Of a stretch of DNA of 64,000 bases, positions 2,425 to 12,480 are shown piece by piece (the stretch's first letter is position 1; each line of letters starts with the position of its first letter). Source of the stretch: Nannocystales bacterium. GTDB lineage: Bacteria > Myxococcota_A > Polyangia > Nannocystales > Nannocystaceae. The DNA lies in the NCBI GenBank assembly GCA_050633305.1, contig JBOEGF010000014.1:64001-128000 (forward strand), written 5' to 3'. Below the pieces are notes generated by a model that had not been told where the DNA came from, searched no databases, and saw only the letters and a program-made list of their open reading frames with translations. A program made the translations under genes and the position numbers.

Positions 2425-2621
2425 GGACCGAGCGGGGATGGGACAGCCCCCGAGTCGGGTGCGGGTGGAAAATATGCTTTGATTCCGAAGGTATACCGGT
2501 TGGACTCTAAAAATCGTCACGGGGCGTGTCATTGAGGGCCACGTCATTGCGAACGAAGTTCGCCGGCTCGCAATCCGGCTCGCCTGTCGCCGACTCTTAG
2601 AACTCAAAGCACCTCTCCAAC

Positions 2622-4607
2622 ATGAAATTTAGCACGCTCCTCACCCGTCACCTGACCTGCTTCCTCCTGAGCTCCAGCGCGTTCGCGTGTTCGGCGGAGG
2701 GGGAACTCGACGCTCCCGAGGCGACTCCTCGAGCCGCGCCCACTGAAGCTGAGTCGCGGGCTGAGGTGTGCGACCTGTCTAACCAGGTCGTCGTTTTCAG
2801 CCAGGAGAGTAGTTGCGACGACGTTGGACCTTGGGAGGGGGAGCGGATCTTTGGCGGGTCCGGAGAGCCTCAGCCACCGGCAGGGTTGAGGGGCTACTGC
2901 CGCTACACGAAAGCGAGCAACACAACCCAGGGCCATGTCGACGCGCTTGCTGCCGGGCTGACTGCCGGGGACAACTCTCCAGCCTTTGAGATCGGCACGG
3001 ACTGCCGGGCTGTCGAGACTCAGAACTCCGCAATCGCGGATGAGGTTGGCACAGATCTGGAGGACTTCTTTGGCTGGCTGTCTGGCCGTTTCGACCCGCA
3101 GGACATCACCGTTCCCCCGCCGATCTCAGTCCACACTGCCATCGTCGACACCTATCCCAACGACTCACCGGACAAGCCCAAATCGAGTCATGGGCCCGTT
3201 GTCGCCAGCATCGTCGAATCATTTCTCTGTCCGACCGGCGTCGGTTGCACCCATCCGGTTCGCAACTACCTCGGGCTGCCTCGAACCAACGACGGTCTCA
3301 ATCTCGAGAAGGGAGGCCAGATTGGGCTTCAGTCCGATCTGGCGAAGGGCATCTACGCCGCACTGGTGGAAGACTCGCAGCTCGGCACCGACCGTCTGAT
3401 CATTAACCTGAGCGTCGCCTGGGAGGCAGAGCAGTTCGGCGGAATGGGGCTCGCCGACATGGACCCCGCTGCCCGCTCCGTCTTCGACATCATTCGTGTT
3501 GCTCGCTGTCGCGGCGCACTTATTATCGCAGCTGCGGGCAATGAAAGCAGTCTGTCATGCACCGGGGAGCCCATGGCCCCCGGGCGCTGGGAACAAATCC
3601 CCGCCCCGGACGAGGCGGAGTGCGTCCAGCTGGGCGTCCTAGACTGGGTCGAAGACACTGCTGCGTACACGCCGCTGGTCCATGCCGTCGGCGGACTGTT
3701 TGGCCCGGACACCGCGATGGCGACATCGCGGTCTGCCGGCATGCCACGGCTCGCCGCAGCCTCGAGCCACGCCGTCGCGCCGGCGCGCCTACCAGGCCTG
3801 CCCGGCGCGGCAATTCGGACCGGCACATCGGTTGGTACCGCTGTTGCGAGCGCGACCGCGGCCATGGTCTGGGGCTACGCTCCGGCCCTGACTCCTTCCG
3901 GGGTGATGGAGAGGCTCTACCTGTCCGGTCACCCCGTTGGGGACCTGACAGCCGACTTCGGCTCGGCCGGATCCACGCCCGTGCATCGCATCGATGCCTG
4001 CGCTGCCGTTGCCCTGTCCATTCCCGGCCCCGGCCCAACATGCGACTTCAGCACGCAGCCGGTCACCATTGGCCAGCTCGTTGGTGACCTGGAGGCGGTC
4101 GTGTCGATTTCGCACTCTCTCTCCGTCGACGATCCGCTCGAGTGCACGAACGTCTGCGGCGAGCAGTACTCGTTCCATCCTGTCCCCGGGTCTGCCAGAG
4201 ACTGCGCCGAAGTCGAACCTGACCCCTGGCGTTGGCTCACCACTCCGCAGCCTACCGAGGCAGGCTGCGACGAGTGCGTGCTGACAACGGAGACGTCGAC
4301 GGACCAGGCGACGGCATTGCTCACCGTCGGGGACCACTTCGATGCCGGCAATATCAAGTCGGTAGACCTCGAGATTATCGACGTCTTTGGGATGCCGCAC
4401 TTCTTCGGGATCACCGACAAGGAGCTTCAGCAAGCGGCTGTTGTGGAGCCGCGCTCCGGGTTCATTGATGAGTTCGTGGTGCCTATGAAGCTCGACGGAG
4501 TCTTGGCTGAGCGTGGCTTTGTCATCATGTCGTTCCTCGACCCAGCCGATCCCAACGGGGCGTCGATCGAGACCCGGGACCCGCTGATCCTGCGGACCTT
4601 GCCGTAG
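2622..4607 (+). CDS. S8 (subtilisin-like) serine peptidase, predicted lipoprotein
   Basis: Lipobox SAFAC; catalytic motifs AIVDT, SSHG, IINLS, IIAAAGN (oxyanion Asn), RTGTSVGTA; Cys-rich C-terminal extension. Confidence 0.85.
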   Translation: MKFSTLLTRHLTCFLLSSSAFACSAEGELDAPEATPRAAPTEAESRAEVCDLSNQVVVFSQESSCDDVGPWEGERIFGGSGEPQPPAGLRGYCRYTKASNTTQGHVDALAAGLTAGDNSPAFEIGTDCRAVETQNSAIADEVGTDLEDFFGWLSGRFDPQDITVPPPISVHTAIVDTYPNDSPDKPKSSHGPVVASIVESFLCPTGVGCTHPVRNYLGLPRTNDGLNLEKGGQIGLQSDLAKGIYAALVEDSQLGTDRLIINLSVAWEAEQFGGMGLADMDPAARSVFDIIRVARCRGALIIAAAGNESSLSCTGEPMAPGRWEQIPAPDEAECVQLGVLDWVEDTAAYTPLVHAVGGLFGPDTAMATSRSAGMPRLAAASSHAVAPARLPGLPGAAIRTGTSVGTAVASATAAMVWGYAPALTPSGVMERLYLSGHPVGDLTADFGSAGSTPVHRIDACAAVALSIPGPGPTCDFSTQPVTIGQLVGDLEAVVSISHSLSVDDPLECTNVCGEQYSFHPVPGSARDCAEVEPDPWRWLTTPQPTEAGCDECVLTTETSTDQATALLTVGDHFDAGNIKSVDLEIIDVFGMPHFFGITDKELQQAAVVEPRSGFIDEFVVPMKLDGVLAERGFVIMSFLDPADPNGASIETRDPLILRTLP

Positions 4608-4610
4608 CGG

Positions 4611-7184
4611 CTACGGTGTGATGACCCTGAACTGTTCCCATGGCAGCTCGGGGTCATCTGCACGCAGACGAAGAAGGGCCTCTCGGAGTCGCGTCGGGCC
4701 ATCGAGGGCGACTGCGTTATGGACAGCGACACCGACATCCGCCGCGAAACGATCCGCGACCTCCGCGTCGGCCGCGATGACCCAATCGCTGCCAGAGAGT
4801 ACGAAGGCTCGCCCGATATTCATGCCGCCGCCGACGGTGTCCGGGCTGGGCGCAGCGGTCTCGCAGCCTGTCAGTACGACCCCGCGGGGCACGTCAGGAA
4901 GTGTGAAGACGTCGTGGATGCCAAAGCGCTCGTCGTTGGCGAGCAGCAGAGCGGAGTCCCACCCCGAGAGTCCCGAGCGGACGCCGTGTCCGGCGTAGTG
5001 GAGCAGGTCGACCGAGGCGGTGTGCTCGAAGAGGCTTGAGCGCGTCGCGTCCGAGCCTCGGAGGTCGATGACCGTCCAGTCTTCGGCCTCCAAAACGTGT
5101 CCGATGGCGTCCGCTTCGCTTCGGGCCATCGGCAGATCGTCGCGAGGGTCGGAGAGAATGAGCGCAGCGCGAGCTTCCGTGTCCAAGACGTCGCGTGGTG
5201 GCAGGTCGAGACTGTAGCTGACCGGGGCAAGGTCGAGGAGTGACTTTGCATGTCGCCAGGGCCTGAGATGCAGTGGCTCGGCCACCTCGGCACCTGTCTC
5301 GACGAGGGTGAGCCGAGAGGCTTCGGCCAGGGTCTGCAGCGATGACAAGTCGGTTCGTTGAGACACTTCGATCTCCGAATCGCTGAGTGCAAATACATCG
5401 GATCCGAACGCCACGAGGATGACCTCGCCCGGTGAGGGCGGTCGAAGCTCGGCACACGAGCGAGCGTTCGGCTCGAGACCTAGCCCCCGAATCGCGGCGT
5501 CGAGTGCTTCGCGGTTCCTTCGGGCCTCGGCTGCAAGCTTCGCCGCGGCCGAGACCTGTTTGTCTTCTGAGAGCTCCCAAAGGCTCGCCTCCCCGCGCGC
5601 AACAGCACGTCGGTCGTTCGCGATCTCGGCGACCGCTCGCTCCCAACGTGCCCGCTCGTCTCCTGTCGCAGCACCCAGTCGAGCTGTTCGGTCGAGCCGG
5701 GAAAACTCCCTTGCGCGTGCGAGGCGGATGGCGCATGCGGCTTCCCCAGGACGGCCCATACGCACAAGGGCCTGGACGAGACCCTCGAGGCTCGCGGAGC
5801 GGCCCGCCAGGTACAACTCGCCGCCTTTGTGGGTCCCAACCTGTTCGAATGCTGAACTTAGCTGGGCTTCGCTTGCTGAGTAGGCCTCCACGGCCAGTGC
5901 GTCAAAGCCCCACGCCGCGAGCAGGTTGCCGCGTTGCACGTTTTGGTTCCATGCCAGCTCGATGTCGGACGTCTGGCTTGGCTGTGCGAGCAGCGGAGGT
6001 TGGTTTGACACGTCTCCGCTCTCAAGTGCGGCCGCAGACTCGGCCAGCTCGATCCAACCCCGATGTCTCGCGGGAGTGATGTCGAGTTGTGCCAGCCATC
6101 CCTGCGCCTCCAGCGGTCGCCCGTATTCGAGTTCGGCCAAGGCGAGGTCGAGAAAGAGGGCGGCTTCCCGGCGTGGATGCGGACAGCTGCGAGCCCGCTC
6201 CAGGGCGGCAAGGAGAAGCGGGCGTGGGTCGTCGTGTTCGTGACCTGCGGCCGCGAGTACGAGCTGGCCCCATGCGAGGTTGTTGGCGACGCGGAGCCAC
6301 TGAGAGCAACCCGGGTCCTTGTCCGATTGTCCGGTCTCCAGCTTCCGCAGCAAGGCTCGAGCTTCCTCGGCTCGTCCGAGCTCCGCCAACGTGTTCGCAA
6401 GCATGTCGAGGACGTTGGGTTGACCGTAGTTGAGCCGCTCGGAGAGCACCCGCGCATTCTCGAATCCTGCGATCGCGGTGCCGAGGTCTCCTGCACGCCG
6501 TGCGAGTAGGGCGTTGTAGTACTGCCATCGAGCTTCAGCGTACGGGTTTGTCTCAGTCAAGGGCTCGAGGGCGCCGAGAGCGTCCCGCGCTCGTCGGTGA
6601 TCGTGCGTGAACTCGGTGTGGGTGTACGCGCGCGAAGCCAGAGCCGAGATCTGGTGACGTACCGCGTTCAACTCGCGGGCGAGCTCCAGTTCGGCGTCCC
6701 CGTAGCGTAGTCCGGCCGGTTTTCCTCCCGACCCGCGCCGGAGTAGTTCGAGGGCACGAAGCTTTGCCCAGCCCGAGTTCTCGTTTGCGAACGCTTCGAG
6801 CGCCTTGGGGGAGATACCATCGATGGGAGGTCGAGCCCTCCACTCAAACGCCAGCGTGACCTCAGGGCTCCAGCGTCGGCCGGGGGTTTCGACCTGGACG
6901 GACTTGGCACCTTCGGGAATCGCAACACGGAGCCGTACGCCGCCTTCGATCACGCGTCCGGTCGCTGGGACCGCCACTCCATCGACGCGGACGAGCAGCG
7001 GCGTGGTTGGCTGTACGTCGAGCCAGATGCTGAGCCGGGGTGAGCTTTCTAGGATGCACGTCGCGGGCGCAAACTCCACGCATCCTCCGTAGACGACCTC
7101 CGGCGCAGGGTCGACTCGAGGTTCCTCGCTCGCTTCACATCCACCGGCCAGCAGTGCGGCCGCCATCCATCGAGTCCAGCTCAA
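4611..7184 (-). CDS. TPR-CHAT (caspase-like cysteine protease) protein, predicted lipoprotein
   Basis: C-terminal CHAT motifs DPRDDLPMARSEA, LLHYAGHG, VVLTGCET, GRAFVLSG, W..F; TPR-like helices in the middle; N-terminal AAALLAGGC lipobox. TTG 7184 overlaps the upstream TGA (alternative ATG 7166). The extension to 7661 is rejected. Confidence 0.85.
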   Translation of the reverse strand: MSWTRWMAAALLAGGCEASEEPRVDPAPEVVYGGCVEFAPATCILESSPRLSIWLDVQPTTPLLVRVDGVAVPATGRVIEGGVRLRVAIPEGAKSVQVETPGRRWSPEVTLAFEWRARPPIDGISPKALEAFANENSGWAKLRALELLRRGSGGKPAGLRYGDAELELARELNAVRHQISALASRAYTHTEFTHDHRRARDALGALEPLTETNPYAEARWQYYNALLARRAGDLGTAIAGFENARVLSERLNYGQPNVLDMLANTLAELGRAEEARALLRKLETGQSDKDPGCSQWLRVANNLAWGQLVLAAAGHEHDDPRPLLLAALERARSCPHPRREAALFLDLALAELEYGRPLEAQGWLAQLDITPARHRGWIELAESAAALESGDVSNQPPLLAQPSQTSDIELAWNQNVQRGNLLAAWGFDALAVEAYSASEAQLSSAFEQVGTHKGGELYLAGRSASLEGLVQALVRMGRPGEAACAIRLARAREFSRLDRTARLGAATGDERARWERAVAEIANDRRAVARGEASLWELSEDKQVSAAAKLAAEARRNREALDAAIRGLGLEPNARSCAELRPPSPGEVILVAFGSDVFALSDSEIEVSQRTDLSSLQTLAEASRLTLVETGAEVAEPLHLRPWRHAKSLLDLAPVSYSLDLPPRDVLDTEARAALILSDPRDDLPMARSEADAIGHVLEAEDWTVIDLRGSDATRSSLFEHTASVDLLHYAGHGVRSGLSGWDSALLLANDERFGIHDVFTLPDVPRGVVLTGCETAAPSPDTVGGGMNIGRAFVLSGSDWVIAADAEVADRFAADVGVAVHNAVALDGPTRLREALLRLRADDPELPWEQFRVITP

Positions 7185-7879
7185 GAGGGGAGGATGATGA
7201 CCTCGATCGGCAGCCGCTGCCAGTGACTGTCTCGAACCTCGTCGGGCGATGACGGGGCTTCGGAAGCGTGGGAGAAGACGACCTCGACGGTCCACTGACC
7301 GGGGGGGAGATCGATGAAGCCGTCGAGTGGACCGCGGAGGCGGGCAGAGCCCGAAGCCTTCAGGTTCGCATCCACCGCTTTCGCGAACACAACCTGGCCG
7401 TCCTTGGAGGTTGCGAGCAGACTGACCGCGACGGACTGCTCCACCGAAGATGCTGCCGAGAACTTCCAGTCGATGTTGTCGTCGGGGCCACGCAACTCTA
7501 GCTGACTCGCCACGGCGTCGTGGTCTCCACGTATTGCCGCAGGACCCCCTGCAATCTCGATCGCGTTGTAGGTCGGCAATGCGTCGACGACGGGTGCGCG
7601 GACTGCGAACCAGAGCACAAGCGCGGCGGCAGCCGCCAAGGCCACGGCGGCTGCGACCCACACCGTCGAGCGGCGTTGCGGCAGCTCGGTGACGTTCGGC
7701 GGTTGTGCGGCGATCGACGGCGCCGCGGCAATTGCTGCCTTCGCATCCAGCTCGGCAAACATGTCGTCCAACAACGCGTCCCCGGCTTCACCGTCGAAGT
7801 CGTCGAGCGGGATCGGGGGGTCCTTCGCGTCCGTCTCTCGCTGATGTTGGGCGAGTGCTTCGAGGAGCTCGTCAGCCAT
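7181..7879 (-). CDS. Putative single-pass anti-sigma factor with periplasmic beta-rich domain
   Basis: Acidic N-terminus, TM VWVAAAVALAAAAALVLWFAV, about 140 aa beta-strand-rich C-terminus. ATG 7879 overlaps the sigma stop by 8 nt. Confidence 0.7.
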   Translation of the reverse strand: MADELLEALAQHQRETDAKDPPIPLDDFDGEAGDALLDDMFAELDAKAAIAAAPSIAAQPPNVTELPQRRSTVWVAAAVALAAAAALVLWFAVRAPVVDALPTYNAIEIAGGPAAIRGDHDAVASQLELRGPDDNIDWKFSAASSVEQSVAVSLLATSKDGQVVFAKAVDANLKASGSARLRGPLDGFIDLPPGQWTVEVVFSHASEAPSSPDEVRDSHWQRLPIEVIILPS

Positions 7880-8516
7880 GCGTTGCACCCCCACAGGCGG
7901 CGGTCTCAGCTGGCCTTGCATCCGCGCACAGGGCGGTGGCTCGGGCCAGTTTCCGCATCCTATACGACCAAGCATTGACCGCCCCCCGCGTCATGTCCAT
8001 GTGCTCGGCAACCGCATCGGGGGACATCTCCTGGACGAAAAGCAGGTCGAACAGCTCGTGGTCGCGCTCGTTCATCTTGGCGTGCATCGCAGCGAGGACC
8101 TGATCGAGTTGGTTGCGCTGCTCGAGCCGCTTGGCAAGGTCCGCGTCGTCGGCAGTGTCGATATCGGCCGGATCGAGGGGGGCATCGGCCCAAGGATTGC
8201 CGCGCCCACCGCTGAGCATTCGCGGAATGCGCCGCCGGGCGATGAGTTGCACGAAGCTCTCGAGGCTGCGGCCGCGCTGCGGGTCCCACCGGCGGAGCTG
8301 ATTGCCATCGTTCTCGAACAAGCCCAACAGGATATCGTGGACGAGGTCCTTGACCTCTTGCCGGGGGTCCCGGCCCTCGGCGGCGGCAAGCCGGGAGACC
8401 GCGAACGATGCTTCGCGAGCGACGGCCTGCATGAGTCGCCGCCCAAGCTCCCGACGCGCCGCGGCGTCCCCCGCCAGAGCGCGGGCTACGAGCTCGACAT
8501 CGTCCAGATCGGACAC
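7872..8516 (-). CDS. ECF RNA polymerase sigma factor
   Basis: DVELVARALAGDAAA, sigma2 EVKDLVHDILL..F..LRRWDP..GRSLESFV, sigma4 MSPDAVAEHMDMTRGAVNAWSYR. Confidence 0.9.
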   Translation of the reverse strand: MSDLDDVELVARALAGDAAARRELGRRLMQAVAREASFAVSRLAAAEGRDPRQEVKDLVHDILLGLFENDGNQLRRWDPQRGRSLESFVQLIARRRIPRMLSGGRGNPWADAPLDPADIDTADDADLAKRLEQRNQLDQVLAAMHAKMNERDHELFDLLFVQEMSPDAVAEHMDMTRGAVNAWSYRMRKLARATALCADARPAETAACGGATHG

Positions 8517-8698
8517 GCGCCGAGCGTAGCAGGATGTGTGGCCGGTGGTTGCCCAGGACCCTCATTCACGCCGAGCGGAACGCGAATGACGCAGCGTCTG
8601 ACAAATTGTCGAAACCGCACCCTCTGGGTCCGTGTCCCCGTCGCGAGGCCACCCCCACAGACAGATTTGGTCGGCGGTTGGCTCGGAAACCCGAGGCC

Positions 8699-9544: not shown

Positions 9545-9637
9545 CTTCGAAGCTCCTGCTCGGCCCCTTCCTTGTAGCAGAACCGCACCAGCGCGACATC
9601 AGCGCGATGCGGCCCGGTGTGGGCTATCCTGGAAGAC

Positions 9638-11386
9638 GTGAGTCAGGCCGATGCCAAGATCGTGGAGCACGAAGAGGCGGCCCACGAGAAGCGCAACTGG
9701 GTTCGGCTGACGTACGACTGCAACGACCGCTGCATCTTCTGCCTCGACTCACACACGCACGATGGGACGAACCGCGACCGCGAAGAAGTTCGGGCGCAGA
9801 TCCTCGACGGGCGGCGCAAGGGCGCGCAGCGGCTGATCCTCTCGGGGGGAGAGCCGACGATCCACCCGGACTTCGTCAAGTTCGTGAAGCTCGGGGCCCT
9901 GGCCGGTTACCGCAAAGTGCAAACCGTCACGAACGGCCGGATGTTCGCGTACCCCGACTTCCTCAAGCGGAGCCTGGACGCTGGCCTCTCGGAGATCACG
10001 TTTTCGATCCACGGTCCCAACGCCCGGGTTCACGACGCGTTGGTCGGAACGAAGGGGGCATTCGAGCAAGAGGTCACGGGCCTGAAGCACGCGATGGCGG
10101 ATGGTCGGCCGATCATCAACATCGATGTCTGCGTGAACAAGGGCAACGTGAAGGTGCTGCCCGACATCCTGGAGACGTTCGTCGGCATGGGCGTCAAGGA
10201 GTACGACCTGCTCCACGTGATCCCGTTCGGACGCGCGTACACCGAGGGCAAGGAAACGCTCTTCTACGACCTTGAAGAGATGCGCCCGTTTCTCCTCGAG
10301 GCGTTCGAATATTCGAAGCGTCCGGACATCCACATCTGGCTCAACCGCTTTCCCGTTCCTCACCTCGAGGGCTACGAGTCGCTCATCCAGGACCCGTACA
10401 AGCTCGGTGATGAGGTGCGCGGTCGCAAGGAAGAGTATGCGCAGCTGCTCGAGCGAGGCATCCCGTTGGACTGCCGAGAGCCGGACCGGTGTCGCCACTG
10501 TTACCTCGAGCCGCTGTGCGACCGGCTCGATGAGGTTCGGGAAACGGTCGCGGAGCAGACCTACGCCCGGGTGCGTCTCGAGCCCGGGTTCGAGGCGTCG
10601 ATGCAGCCGGTCTACGGCGGAGACCCGGCGACCAAGAAGCGCACAGAGGAGCGCAGTCAGATCGCTCAGGAGGCGCAGGCGGGCAACGTTCAAGCTCGGC
10701 ATCGTCTTCAGGTGATCGGGGCGGGCAAGTCGGTGCAGTACCCCAGCGTGGCGCACCACGTTGCCGCGGCCAAGACGGTGTGGATCGTTGCACCGACGCT
10801 GGCGGACGCACAGCGGGCGCTGAAGGGGTTGGAGGTCGCGGCGGTGGAACTCGAACTTGCGGACCCCACCGGCATCGAGCCAACCCTCGATGGAGTTGCG
10901 GTGACCCGCGTGCTGGTCAAGACCACCGAGCACGCGCAAGCGCTGCTCGAGATGGAGGCGCCCTTCGAGGTTGCGATCACGTTGTCGAAGGCCACAGCAC
11001 CGTGGCTCCTGTCGCTGGATGCGGCGCCAGATCGCCTGTGCATCGTGCAACCCAGCCACGATCGGCTCACAACCGCGGCGTCCGAAGATGTTGAGCTGGA
11101 TGCCTTCTTCGAGGCGTTCGAGCTCCCCGTTCCGGTCGAGGGTGTTCCGGCCTGCATCAGCGCAGAGCGAGCCCGCGCGACACCATCCACCCTGGACGCA
11201 GCGATGATGACGCCGCAGGGCGAACTCGAGATCTTCCGTTTCGCAAGGCGGTACGTGCAGTCCGACTACCGGGTGAAATCGCTGCGCTGCAAGACATGCA
11301 AACACGTCGGGTCGTGCGAAGGGCTGCATGTCAACCACGTGCGGGCGTTCGGATTCGCAGCGTTGCAACCGGTGACCGACGGATGA
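9638..11386 (+). CDS. Radical SAM enzyme (HxsC-like) with two auxiliary Cys clusters
   Basis: CNDRCIFC, LSGGEPTIHP, TNGRMF, SIHG...HDALV; internal CREPDRCRHCYLEPLC and terminal CKTCKHVGSCEG. GTG 9638 follows a TATCCT box (ORF-track start 9617). Confidence 0.9.
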   Translation: MSQADAKIVEHEEAAHEKRNWVRLTYDCNDRCIFCLDSHTHDGTNRDREEVRAQILDGRRKGAQRLILSGGEPTIHPDFVKFVKLGALAGYRKVQTVTNGRMFAYPDFLKRSLDAGLSEITFSIHGPNARVHDALVGTKGAFEQEVTGLKHAMADGRPIINIDVCVNKGNVKVLPDILETFVGMGVKEYDLLHVIPFGRAYTEGKETLFYDLEEMRPFLLEAFEYSKRPDIHIWLNRFPVPHLEGYESLIQDPYKLGDEVRGRKEEYAQLLERGIPLDCREPDRCRHCYLEPLCDRLDEVRETVAEQTYARVRLEPGFEASMQPVYGGDPATKKRTEERSQIAQEAQAGNVQARHRLQVIGAGKSVQYPSVAHHVAAAKTVWIVAPTLADAQRALKGLEVAAVELELADPTGIEPTLDGVAVTRVLVKTTEHAQALLEMEAPFEVAITLSKATAPWLLSLDAAPDRLCIVQPSHDRLTTAASEDVELDAFFEAFELPVPVEGVPACISAERARATPSTLDAAMMTPQGELEIFRFARRYVQSDYRVKSLRCKTCKHVGSCEGLHVNHVRAFGFAALQPVTDG

Positions 11387-12480
11387 AGTGGCCCGATGCC
11401 GAAGGGCTGGTGCTGGATGACCTCACGGTCCCGAGGCCCGGCTCGAGCACGTTGCGTGGCGTATGGTCCAGAGCGCTCCGTCGAACGGTCCTCGATTTGC
11501 TTTCGCTCGAGGCCCCGCCGACCTGCCGCACGTGGGGCGTGAGCCGGGCCGCCGTCGCAGGGTTGGCAAAGTCGAACCCCGGGGCGTTGTTCAGCGTGTT
11601 GCGTCAGCCCGGTGTTGGAACGCGGATCCGGTGCCTCCGAGATCCGTCGCGCGATGACATCGATCGCGTTGCCGTCTGTGAATCCCTGCAGGCGGTGCTG
11701 GCACACGAGTTGGGAGCGTCGTGGACGGGCCCGGTCGTTCTCGATGCCACGTTTACCTCGTGGCGCGAGCGAGGCGAGGTCCGCGGCGGTCGGGTGATGA
11801 CCCAAGACGAGCACGGCCTACTGTTCGCGCCATTGGGTGCAGGCGTGATGTTGTGCCGGGCGGACGACAGCCCGCTCGCCATGCACGAGGCGCACCCGGA
11901 CAAGGATGGCAACCGCACCTCGCTCGGGGGGCAAGCGCAGTCACAATGGGTCGAGAGCCTGCGAGCCGCACTGGAGCTGATCGGAGTCGGACTCCCGGAC
12001 TTACACGCAGAGATCGAGCTCGCCCTGCATCAGATCGTCCCGGTCGGCTACGAGGAGTCCCGCCATCTCTCCGCATCGTTTCAGGAAAACCTCGGCACGG
12101 CGTACATGACGCTGCACCCGCAGCGGATGACGATGGTCGAGGCGATCGTGCACGAGTTCTCCCACAACAAGCTCAACGCCCTGCTCGAAATCGATCCGGT
12201 GCTTCACAACGCTTTCGAGCCGCTGTTCTCATCTCCAGTACGGCCGGATCCGCGGCCACTGCACGGCGTCCTTCTTGCGGTACACGCGTTCACGGCGGTG
12301 GAGTCGCTGTATCGCTCACTTCGCCGCCAGGGCCACCGTGTCAGCGAGGGACAAGGTTTTGAGCAACGCCTGAGAACGATCGCGGAAGGGAATCGCGAGG
12401 GGCTCGAAACGCTCGAAAACGCCGAGCCGACAGCGGCGGGGAAGTCGTTGTTGTCCGAGCTTCGCCGCCTCGCGGTGTAG
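11383..12480 (+). CDS. HEXXH-motif peptide-modification protein (aKG-HExxH family)
   Basis: HLSAS..ENLG, EAIVHEFSHNKLNAL, SPVRPDPRPLHGVLLAVHAF, TAAGKSLL. ATGA overlap with the radical SAM stop. Confidence 0.85.
   Translation: MKWPDAEGLVLDDLTVPRPGSSTLRGVWSRALRRTVLDLLSLEAPPTCRTWGVSRAAVAGLAKSNPGALFSVLRQPGVGTRIRCLRDPSRDDIDRVAVCESLQAVLAHELGASWTGPVVLDATFTSWRERGEVRGGRVMTQDEHGLLFAPLGAGVMLCRADDSPLAMHEAHPDKDGNRTSLGGQAQSQWVESLRAALELIGVGLPDLHAEIELALHQIVPVGYEESRHLSASFQENLGTAYMTLHPQRMTMVEAIVHEFSHNKLNALLEIDPVLHNAFEPLFSSPVRPDPRPLHGVLLAVHAFTAVESLYRSLRRQGHRVSEGQGFEQRLRTIAEGNREGLETLENAEPTAAGKSLLSELRRLAV

Follow-up and report, generated by a model that had tools for sequence, protein, structure and literature searches.

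Does a caspase-like protease, encoded beside a sigma factor of the extracytoplasmic function (ECF) type and a predicted anti-sigma factor, act as the enzyme which opens that anti-sigma factor, and is the subtilase encoded opposite it what the freed sigma factor switches on? This question is raised by a four-gene cassette in a 64,000-nt stretch of contig JBOEGF010000014.1 from a Nannocystales bacterium (assembly GCA_050633305.1), a stretch referred to here as the window and to whose coordinates all positions refer. The answer which we favour, with a probability of roughly 0.6 and on the basis of sequence comparison and structure prediction, is that the tetratricopeptide repeat (TPR)-CHAT protein would be a signal-gated site-1 protease cutting the anti-sigma factor after Arg117, with an RseP-type step next, after which the freed sigma factor would induce the S8 peptidase gene and its own operon. 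The cassette is a split relative of the known DdvA-DdvS switch; it is real and widespread, and its function is predicted. Its parts are as follows.

2622-4607, forward strand: S8 subtilase, 661 amino acids (aa), a predicted lipoprotein (Cys23) with a pro-region and a Cys-rich C-terminal part.
4611-7184, reverse strand: TPR-CHAT protease, 857 aa from a TTG start, a predicted lipoprotein (Cys16).
7181-7879, reverse strand: predicted anti-sigma factor, 232 aa, with a single transmembrane helix and of no named family.
7872-8516, reverse strand: ECF-type sigma factor, 214 aa, with a family match to TIGR02937.
4986-4988, reverse strand: codon of the CHAT catalytic His733, kept in 63/63 homologues and in contact with anti-sigma Arg117 in the model.
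4863-4865, reverse strand: codon of the CHAT catalytic Cys774, kept in 63/63 homologues and within the modelled interface.
4752-4754, reverse strand: codon of CHAT Asp811, the putative S1-pocket acid, kept in 58/61 and covarying with anti-sigma position 117.
7529-7531, reverse strand: codon of anti-sigma Arg117, predicted from conservation and model to be P1 of the CHAT cut (between R and G).
2527-2556, forward strand: predicted ECF-type promoter of S8, TGTCATTG-16 nt-GAACGA, 15.0 bits with the family matrix.
8562-8591, reverse strand: candidate promoter through which the sigma/anti-sigma/CHAT operon would regulate itself, CGTCATTC-16 nt-GAATGA, 14.0 bits.

The layout is as the original prediction had read it: the sigma and anti-sigma genes overlap by 8 nt (7872-7879), the anti-sigma and CHAT genes share the letters TTGA (7181-7184), and 3 nt (4608-4610) separate the converging stops of CHAT and S8. 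As the 4-nt overlap is also kept in the two closest relatives, loci L037 and L038, the TTG start of CHAT is supported. Family matches were found for CHAT (PF12770, E 1.7e-16, with TPR matches weak and below the cut-off), S8 (Peptidase_S8, E 3.3e-5, over the cut-off) and sigma (sigma70-ECF TIGR02937, E 6.6e-12), and none for the anti-sigma factor in Pfam or NCBIfam. The catalytic residues, claimed to be intact in the window, are so throughout both families: the CHAT dyad of His733 and Cys774 in 63/63 aligned homologues (the frameshifted locus L070 excluded) and the S8 residues D176/H190/N307/S403 in 57/57. An AlphaFold model of the CHAT protein (predicted local distance difference test, pLDDT, 92.9) is comprised of an N-terminal beta domain (~24-115), TPR-like helices (~126-495), a long helical hairpin (508-567) and the CHAT domain (~587-857). 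Foldseek ranked DdvA first for this model, followed by Csx29 and separase, at 10-16% identity (top matches 8ROT, E 1.2e-12 and 15% identity; 8EEY, E 1.9e-12; 7ZOQ; 8RW5). A profile search of the sequences of solved structures gave only TPR proteins among the 60 matches listed, neither DdvA nor Csx29, thus the likeness to these two proteins is one of fold only.

Both proteases are likely exported, judging from their N-termini, which agrees with the envelope location proposed for them earlier. A Cys follows a hydrophobic N-terminal stretch in 56/63 CHAT and 53/57 S8 homologues and is preceded by Gly, Ala or Ser in 49/56 and 53/53 of these respectively; the conserved CHAT Cys pairs 35/43 and 484/577 also fit export. 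The accompanying claim that both carry lipoboxes stands as regards the conserved Cys after a hydrophobic N-terminus, but the boxes in the window (AGG-C and AFA-C) depart from the textbook pattern, to which 10/56 CHAT and 16/53 S8 sequences conform. Export is predicted rather than established, as the lipoboxes are mostly non-canonical.

The anti-sigma factor, modelled with a pLDDT of 85.9, consists of cytoplasmic helices (2-51), a transmembrane helix (72-93) and a periplasmic immunoglobulin (Ig)-like beta-sandwich (104-229). It has one strong transmembrane segment, with a mean of 2.9 Lys/Arg before and 0.7 after it, and it is this charge bias which places the sandwich on the outside. Gene order suggests that the protein binds the sigma factor. 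A zinc-binding CHCC domain was not seen, as the protein in the window contains no Cys and HxxxCxxC occurs in 0/150 relatives. A fold search with the periplasmic domain returned only generic Ig-like matches (best Z 9.1, root-mean-square deviation 2.6, 93 aligned), hence no family is named for it, and a search of the Atlas gave only unnamed Myxococcota clusters.

Within this otherwise poorly conserved periplasmic part, where the background frequency of Arg is 8.6%, Arg117 is near-invariant (54/57 homologues at 21-55% identity) and the residue after it is Gly, Ser or Ala in 55/57. The Arg is kept in 19/20 loci of other families and in 150/150 of the best library matches, a figure obtained with a profile which favours Arg, and in the model it lies in the loop after the first strand of the sandwich. 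A complex of CHAT 25-857 and anti-sigma 97-232 was modelled along with three controls and scored 0.75, a mark reached by 116/157 solved complexes and 2/215 mismatched pairs; the best of the controls scored 0.00. The runs share at least 95% of their contacts, with a partner pLDDT of at least 86. His733 and residue 734 are placed in touch with Arg117 at an expected error of ~1 Å, CHAT 772-775 and 808-811 line the interface, and a second large contact joins CHAT 536-543 to anti-sigma 139-146 and 174-180, the hairpin 508-567 supplying a second docking site. The suggestion that CHAT acts on the periplasmic domain thus gains in substance, in that its active site is predicted to engage that domain.

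Position 117 of the anti-sigma factor changes together with position 811 of CHAT. The three anti-sigma factors of the first round with Leu117 were exactly the three whose CHAT has Ala for Asp811, and 60 further loci yielded 44 readable pairs: 31 Arg/Asp, 1 Arg/Asn, 10 Leu/non-Asp and two distant ones in which Phe or a gap is paired with non-Asp and the catalytic His of CHAT is lost. Across 95 cassettes, a set whose tree excludes these two His-less loci and two fragments, 81 are Arg/Asp, 1 Arg/Asn, 13 Leu/non-Asp and 0 Leu/Asp. In Arg-specific clan CD proteases acidic S1 residues are described as binding the P1 Arg (PMC4626109), and we infer that Asp811 is such an S1-pocket acid; HetF is reported to cut PatU3 between R117 and S118 (PMC9457339). 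It is towards Arg117 that conservation, the complex model and the paired Arg/Asp change all point, hence its choice as the predicted cut site. An Arg in the S8 pro-region was also considered as a CHAT site and rejected: four paralogues share an RAA motif there, which the 57 homologues do not conserve.

The distribution of the cassette was determined by searching 60 family genomes with S8, CHAT and sigma profiles and crossing the coordinates. Split matches were merged, giving 95 S8 places and 136 listed CHAT places (with 30 further CHAT matches beyond these), and the sigma set was comprised of the 110 strongest places, 23 weaker ones having been dropped; as the top 15-51 candidates were scored per genome and search, all census counts are lower bounds. 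CHAT lies within 6 kb of 87/110 sigma places and S8 within 9 kb in 58/87 of the resulting cassettes, so that both stand beside sigma in 58/110; these are spread over 33/60 genomes and ten gene orders, of which that of the window is the commonest (25 cassettes). Counted from the subtilase, CHAT is near S8 in 66/95 places, or within 6 kb in 62/91 when the genome of the window (G000; 11.0 Mb, 66% GC, 92% complete) is left aside. The linkage of S8 and CHAT is far beyond chance. The expectation that S8 would be co-conserved with the cassette is borne out by these 58 cassettes, but S8 is not required, as none was seen in 29/87. Among the fetched loci, where contig ends are uncontrolled, S8 occurs in 0/13 Leu-type and 63/85 Arg-type cassettes. 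The four genes appear to be inherited jointly, with a similarity-pattern rho of 0.55-0.70 across 45 complete cassettes whose kin are not independent; CHAT and S8 share their nearest neighbour in 33/45 loci, and paralogues within one genome each pair with a cassette of another genome. The anti-sigma gene directly follows sigma wherever it was found in the 64 first-round loci, even where CHAT has moved or is divergent; these loci were chosen mostly for having S8, thus their per-locus counts represent a non-random sample.

Phylum-wide, the anti-sigma profile matches 46/301 genomes at E 1e-5, many of them weakly, and among 20 strong loci in other families CHAT is present in 12, accompanied by S8 in 11. 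Loci L096, L098, L101, L103, L106, L109 and L114, all from other families, keep the Arg, lack a CHAT gene within ~6 kb and may depend on one acting in trans. The family is large, with 2,215 clusters when grouped at 50% identity (E up to 1e-10), homologues with source names come from Nannocystaceae/Myxococcota, and no description of the family's function was found in the literature searched. Within G000 there are five paralogous sigma/anti-sigma/CHAT cassettes with 22-41% identity, four of which have an adjoining S8. The four outside the window (L001-L004) lie at C14:319894-326462, C23:132978-139398, C13:298868-305148 and C49:29335-35774; three have S8, in two gene orders, and the one on C49, which is of the Leu type, lacks S8 and is followed by two lipoprotein-like genes without a Pfam match. 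A sixth operon of sigma, transmembrane anti-sigma and TPR-CHAT in this genome (C7:169906-176312) has a different sigma type; its anti-sigma factor has an Arg-Ala soon after the transmembrane helix, and beside it is a divergent lipoprotein-like gene, by eye a trypsin-type protease.

The regions upstream of 53 S8 genes, that of the window included, yielded in a Gibbs search the motif (C/T)GTCA(G/T), a 16-nt spacer and (C/G)AA(T/C)G, with an information content of 14.2 bits vs 10.9-11.3 for shuffles. With leave-one-out scoring, 39/53 regions reach at least 11 bits vs 2.2% of shuffles; at this threshold the opposite strand gave 5/53 and regions before CHAT 0/65, whilst at 9 bits a spacer of 16 gave 40/53 and no other spacer gave more than 17. 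Of the held-out S8 regions of the family, five could be scored and four of these reach 14 bits. Region 2430-2621, put forward in the original prediction as a sigma-responsive reporter, thus contains a conserved stretch (2527-2556) which is predicted to be an ECF-like promoter. Sigma upstream regions were not used in building the matrix, and the motif before sigma is also present in the three closest relatives, L037-L039; where S8 lies ahead of sigma on one strand, both genes could be driven from the S8 promoter. In the Leu-type C49 paralogue the motif precedes a small lipoprotein gene right after CHAT. A genome-wide scan at 14 bits gave 240 matches vs 121 expected and was too noisy to define a regulon. 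Strong intergenic matches from this noisy scan (G000 C16:116073, C23:186311, C13:312482, C40:50322 and C13:92878) are followed by genes with signal-peptide-like or lipoprotein-like starts, which are candidates for membership of the regulon. Variants of the promoter, for example CGTCAGA..AGA and CGTTGGA..TA, track cassette subfamilies (L002/L035; L003/L036/L040/L045/L053; L044/L046/L050/L082) and may reflect either sigma specificity or shared ancestry.

The favoured mechanism would run as follows. At rest the N-terminal helices of the anti-sigma factor would hold sigma at the inner membrane, as gene order and anatomy suggest, until an envelope signal aligns the His-Cys dyad of CHAT via the TPR arm, by analogy with Csx29 and DdvA; CHAT would then dock on the periplasmic domain and cut after Arg117. 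A peptide generated by S8, as put forward in the original prediction, may be something which the TPRs sense. This cut would leave a periplasmic stub of ~24 residues open to attack by an RseP-type protease, as in truncated DdvA, which, once its periplasmic part is gone, is reported to be cut within the membrane in an RseP-dependent manner (PMC11506125), and the freed sigma factor would switch on the S8 gene and its own operon. The S8 lipoprotein would be the usual output, replaced by another lipoprotein in some of the cassettes without S8, and paralogous cassettes might be insulated from one another by differences in the P1/S1 pair, the docking surface and the promoter variant.

Several observations weigh against this mechanism and it should be considered with caution. 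The score of the complex model may stem from likeness to the solved Csx29-Csx30 and separase-Scc1 complexes, a bound inhibitor or pseudo-substrate would look alike in it, and the 25 closest pairs listed for it do not include Asp811-Arg117. The change from Arg/Asp to Leu/non-Asp needs only 2 steps on the 95-cassette tree, both joint (a check with IQ-TREE on 39 rows gave 2-3 over bootstraps), and with so few changes a sign test on the pairing (p 0.5) cannot reach significance. Two distant cassettes, L144 and L149, have Phe for the catalytic His of CHAT, and a listed CHAT within 6 kb is missing for 23/110 sigma places and for 29/95 S8 places. The motif reaches 11 bits before sigma in only 11/63 loci, does so in 17/58 stretches before the anti-sigma gene, which lie inside the sigma gene, and is weak in other families (1/8, or 3/11 with a wider window). 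Lastly, DdvA is reported not to cleave itself on phage infection, and its dyad mutants to have no effect at rest (PMC11506125). As for L144 and L149, their anti-sigma factors also lack the Arg, and they are possible non-proteolytic versions of the cassette.

Two other ways in which CHAT and the anti-sigma factor could work together must be set beside the signal-gated cut. CHAT might nick Arg117 constitutively, the first strand staying inserted until a later step (S8, a ligand or force) separates the halves. The position of the loop directly after the first strand of the sandwich allows for this, since a cut there need not release the domain, and other anti-sigma factors are described as being cleaved constitutively, their products staying associated (PMC11506125, PMC10328401); the large TPR arm and the separase/Csx29-like fold, however, suggest a regulated enzyme, and S8 cannot be the general trigger as it is missing from 29/87 cassettes. 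We consider such a priming cut unlikely, if worth keeping in mind. Alternatively, the anti-sigma loop may lie in the active site of CHAT much as securin does, a pseudo-substrate which is never cut, so that CHAT shields the anti-sigma factor or stays inactive until freed for another target such as the pro-form of S8. The complex model does not separate substrate from inhibitor, its large second contact would fit a stable complex, and the lack of DdvA self-cleavage in the condition tested (PMC11506125) is in keeping with it; yet the scissile position has the true pattern of P1 Arg and small P1' seen in HetF-PatU3, and no Arg conserved across the family was seen in the S8 pro-region. Docking without cleavage is thus, in our judgement, rather improbable.

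A further possibility is that the cassette senses invaders, with its proteases forming a defence or cell-death cascade like the DdvS-controlled CBASS-CRISPR or SAVED-CHAT/PCaspase systems, and a defence role had indeed been raised in the original prediction. The closest solved folds come from defence systems, and copies are patchily distributed, single genomes having 0 to 10 sigma matches. However, none of the four proteins has a PADLOC match, there is no RAMP gene in G000 (at its 92% completeness), the flanking genes encode PspA, a MerR/TipAS regulator and membrane proteins, relatives have inherited the genes together, and the predicted outputs are exported lipoproteins. No control of CBASS or CRISPR was found, within a check which covered RAMPs and the four cassette proteins and in which CBASS genes were not searched genome-wide. 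An anti-phage function has no support from these results and strikes us as very unlikely.

The novelty of the system, described earlier as uncharacterised, was overstated, as the precedents of DdvA and ECF54 had been missed. DdvA/DdvS of Myxococcus xanthus follows the same logic in a fused form (PMC11506125, PMC6061681; PDB 8ROT, 8RW5): an envelope-located TPR-CHAT protein with a His-Cys dyad is proposed as the site-1 protease for an ECF anti-sigma factor, its cleavage being still a hypothesis in that paper (PMC11506125). Common to both are the ECF sigma factor, the single-pass anti-sigma factor and the separase/craspase-type TPR-CHAT fold, here modelled, and the ddv operon also has a peptidase gene, of the C25 type. 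In DdvA, however, the anti-sigma factor and TPR-CHAT are fused, whereas here they are separate genes and CHAT is a predicted lipoprotein; the anti-sigma factor here lacks a zinc domain, and its periplasmic part is an Ig-like domain of its own which contains the conserved Arg; and the predicted target is an S8 lipoprotein rather than CBASS-CRISPR. The CHAT of DdvA is described as being without the three-helix motif of separase/Csx29 (PMC11506125). The 150 relatives which best match the anti-sigma factor have lengths of 221-403 aa, in a search which did not look for fused forms separately. One candidate for a natural DdvA-like fusion, a single open reading frame over anti-sigma and CHAT at L070:5756-9446, contains out-of-frame stretches and was rejected as the product of frameshift errors.

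In the ECF54 neighbourhood a subtilase and a TPR-CHAT protein are catalogued beside the sigma factor (PMC7826278 supplement; PMC8999054), as found here, with a small beta-domain protein at +1 and a proposal of proteolytic control. ECF54 is given there as 100% Actinobacteria with no anti-sigma factor, its +1 protein is carboxypeptidase-regulatory-like and its promoter is GTATCAG (-35)/CTCC (-10), whereas the homologues with source names here are from Nannocystaceae/Myxococcota, the +1 protein has a transmembrane helix and matches such a Pfam family in 0/57, the CHAT and S8 N-termini are of lipoprotein type, and there is a partial likeness in the -35 box only. This comparison was made by neighbourhood and description, not by homology of sigma or the +1 protein; a link by sequence was sought through plasmid searches and dropped, as sigma found no match in them and the CHAT matches were all cyanobacterial. 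Craspase (Csx29/Csx30/CASP-sigma) likewise has a separate TPR-CHAT protein, of similar fold, which cleaves a sigma inhibitor in its C-terminal domain (PMC10028731), but it is cytoplasmic and RNA-triggered via Cas7-11, and no RAMP match was found in G000; SAVED-CHAT/PCaspase is also CRISPR-linked (10.1101/2023.06.23.546230). HetF/PatU3/HetZ of Anabaena provides a CRISPR-free CHAT which cuts a regulator's inhibitor after Arg and before a small residue (PMC9457339); it differs in that a soluble substrate is acted upon, the TPRs are described as periplasmic beyond a transmembrane helix, and no subtilase is described (PMC9457339). Neighbourhoods of caspase, ECF sigma and DUF1822 have been noted (PMC8195603), the present cassette not being among them. 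No paper was found on a cassette of split lipoprotein TPR-CHAT, transmembrane anti-sigma and S8, in a search which covered subscription literature and the ECF and DdvA supplements in part. In its predicted mode of action the cassette resembles DdvA and Craspase, yet it belongs to neither.

With regard to the surroundings of the cassette, pspA/IM30 and a MerR/TipAS regulator gene, at 932-1636 on the forward and 1647-2387 on the reverse strand respectively, flank the S8 promoter, and genes for membrane proteins are also nearby. The 3' end of pspA is found upstream of S8 in L037 and L039 as well. On the forward strand at 9617-12480, a radical S-adenosylmethionine (SAM) gene overlaps a gene with an HEXXH-like motif and no Pfam match; the two possibly encode peptide-modifying enzymes.

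The DdvA paper leaves open the site-1 role of a periplasmic CHAT (PMC11506125), and the question stays open there because the trigger is not known and enzyme and substrate are one protein. The split form described here separates the enzyme from its substrate, with predictions in place for where it is cut (Arg117), for the pocket residue (Asp811) and for the promoters addressed, and the natural Leu-type variants act as a swap control, so that the question becomes accessible with two soluble proteins and one reporter. More broadly, and at slightly less than even odds, myxobacteria may run a family of periplasmic caspase-like site-1 proteases in which each lipoprotein TPR-CHAT cuts its own anti-sigma factor at a defined P1 (Arg with an Asp pocket or Leu with a neutral one), thus providing each genome with several insulated envelope channels that lead to an exported protease or lipoprotein. 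If true, it would mark the first time that a clan CD enzyme serves as site-1 protease in ECF signalling, and one with a natural specificity switch.

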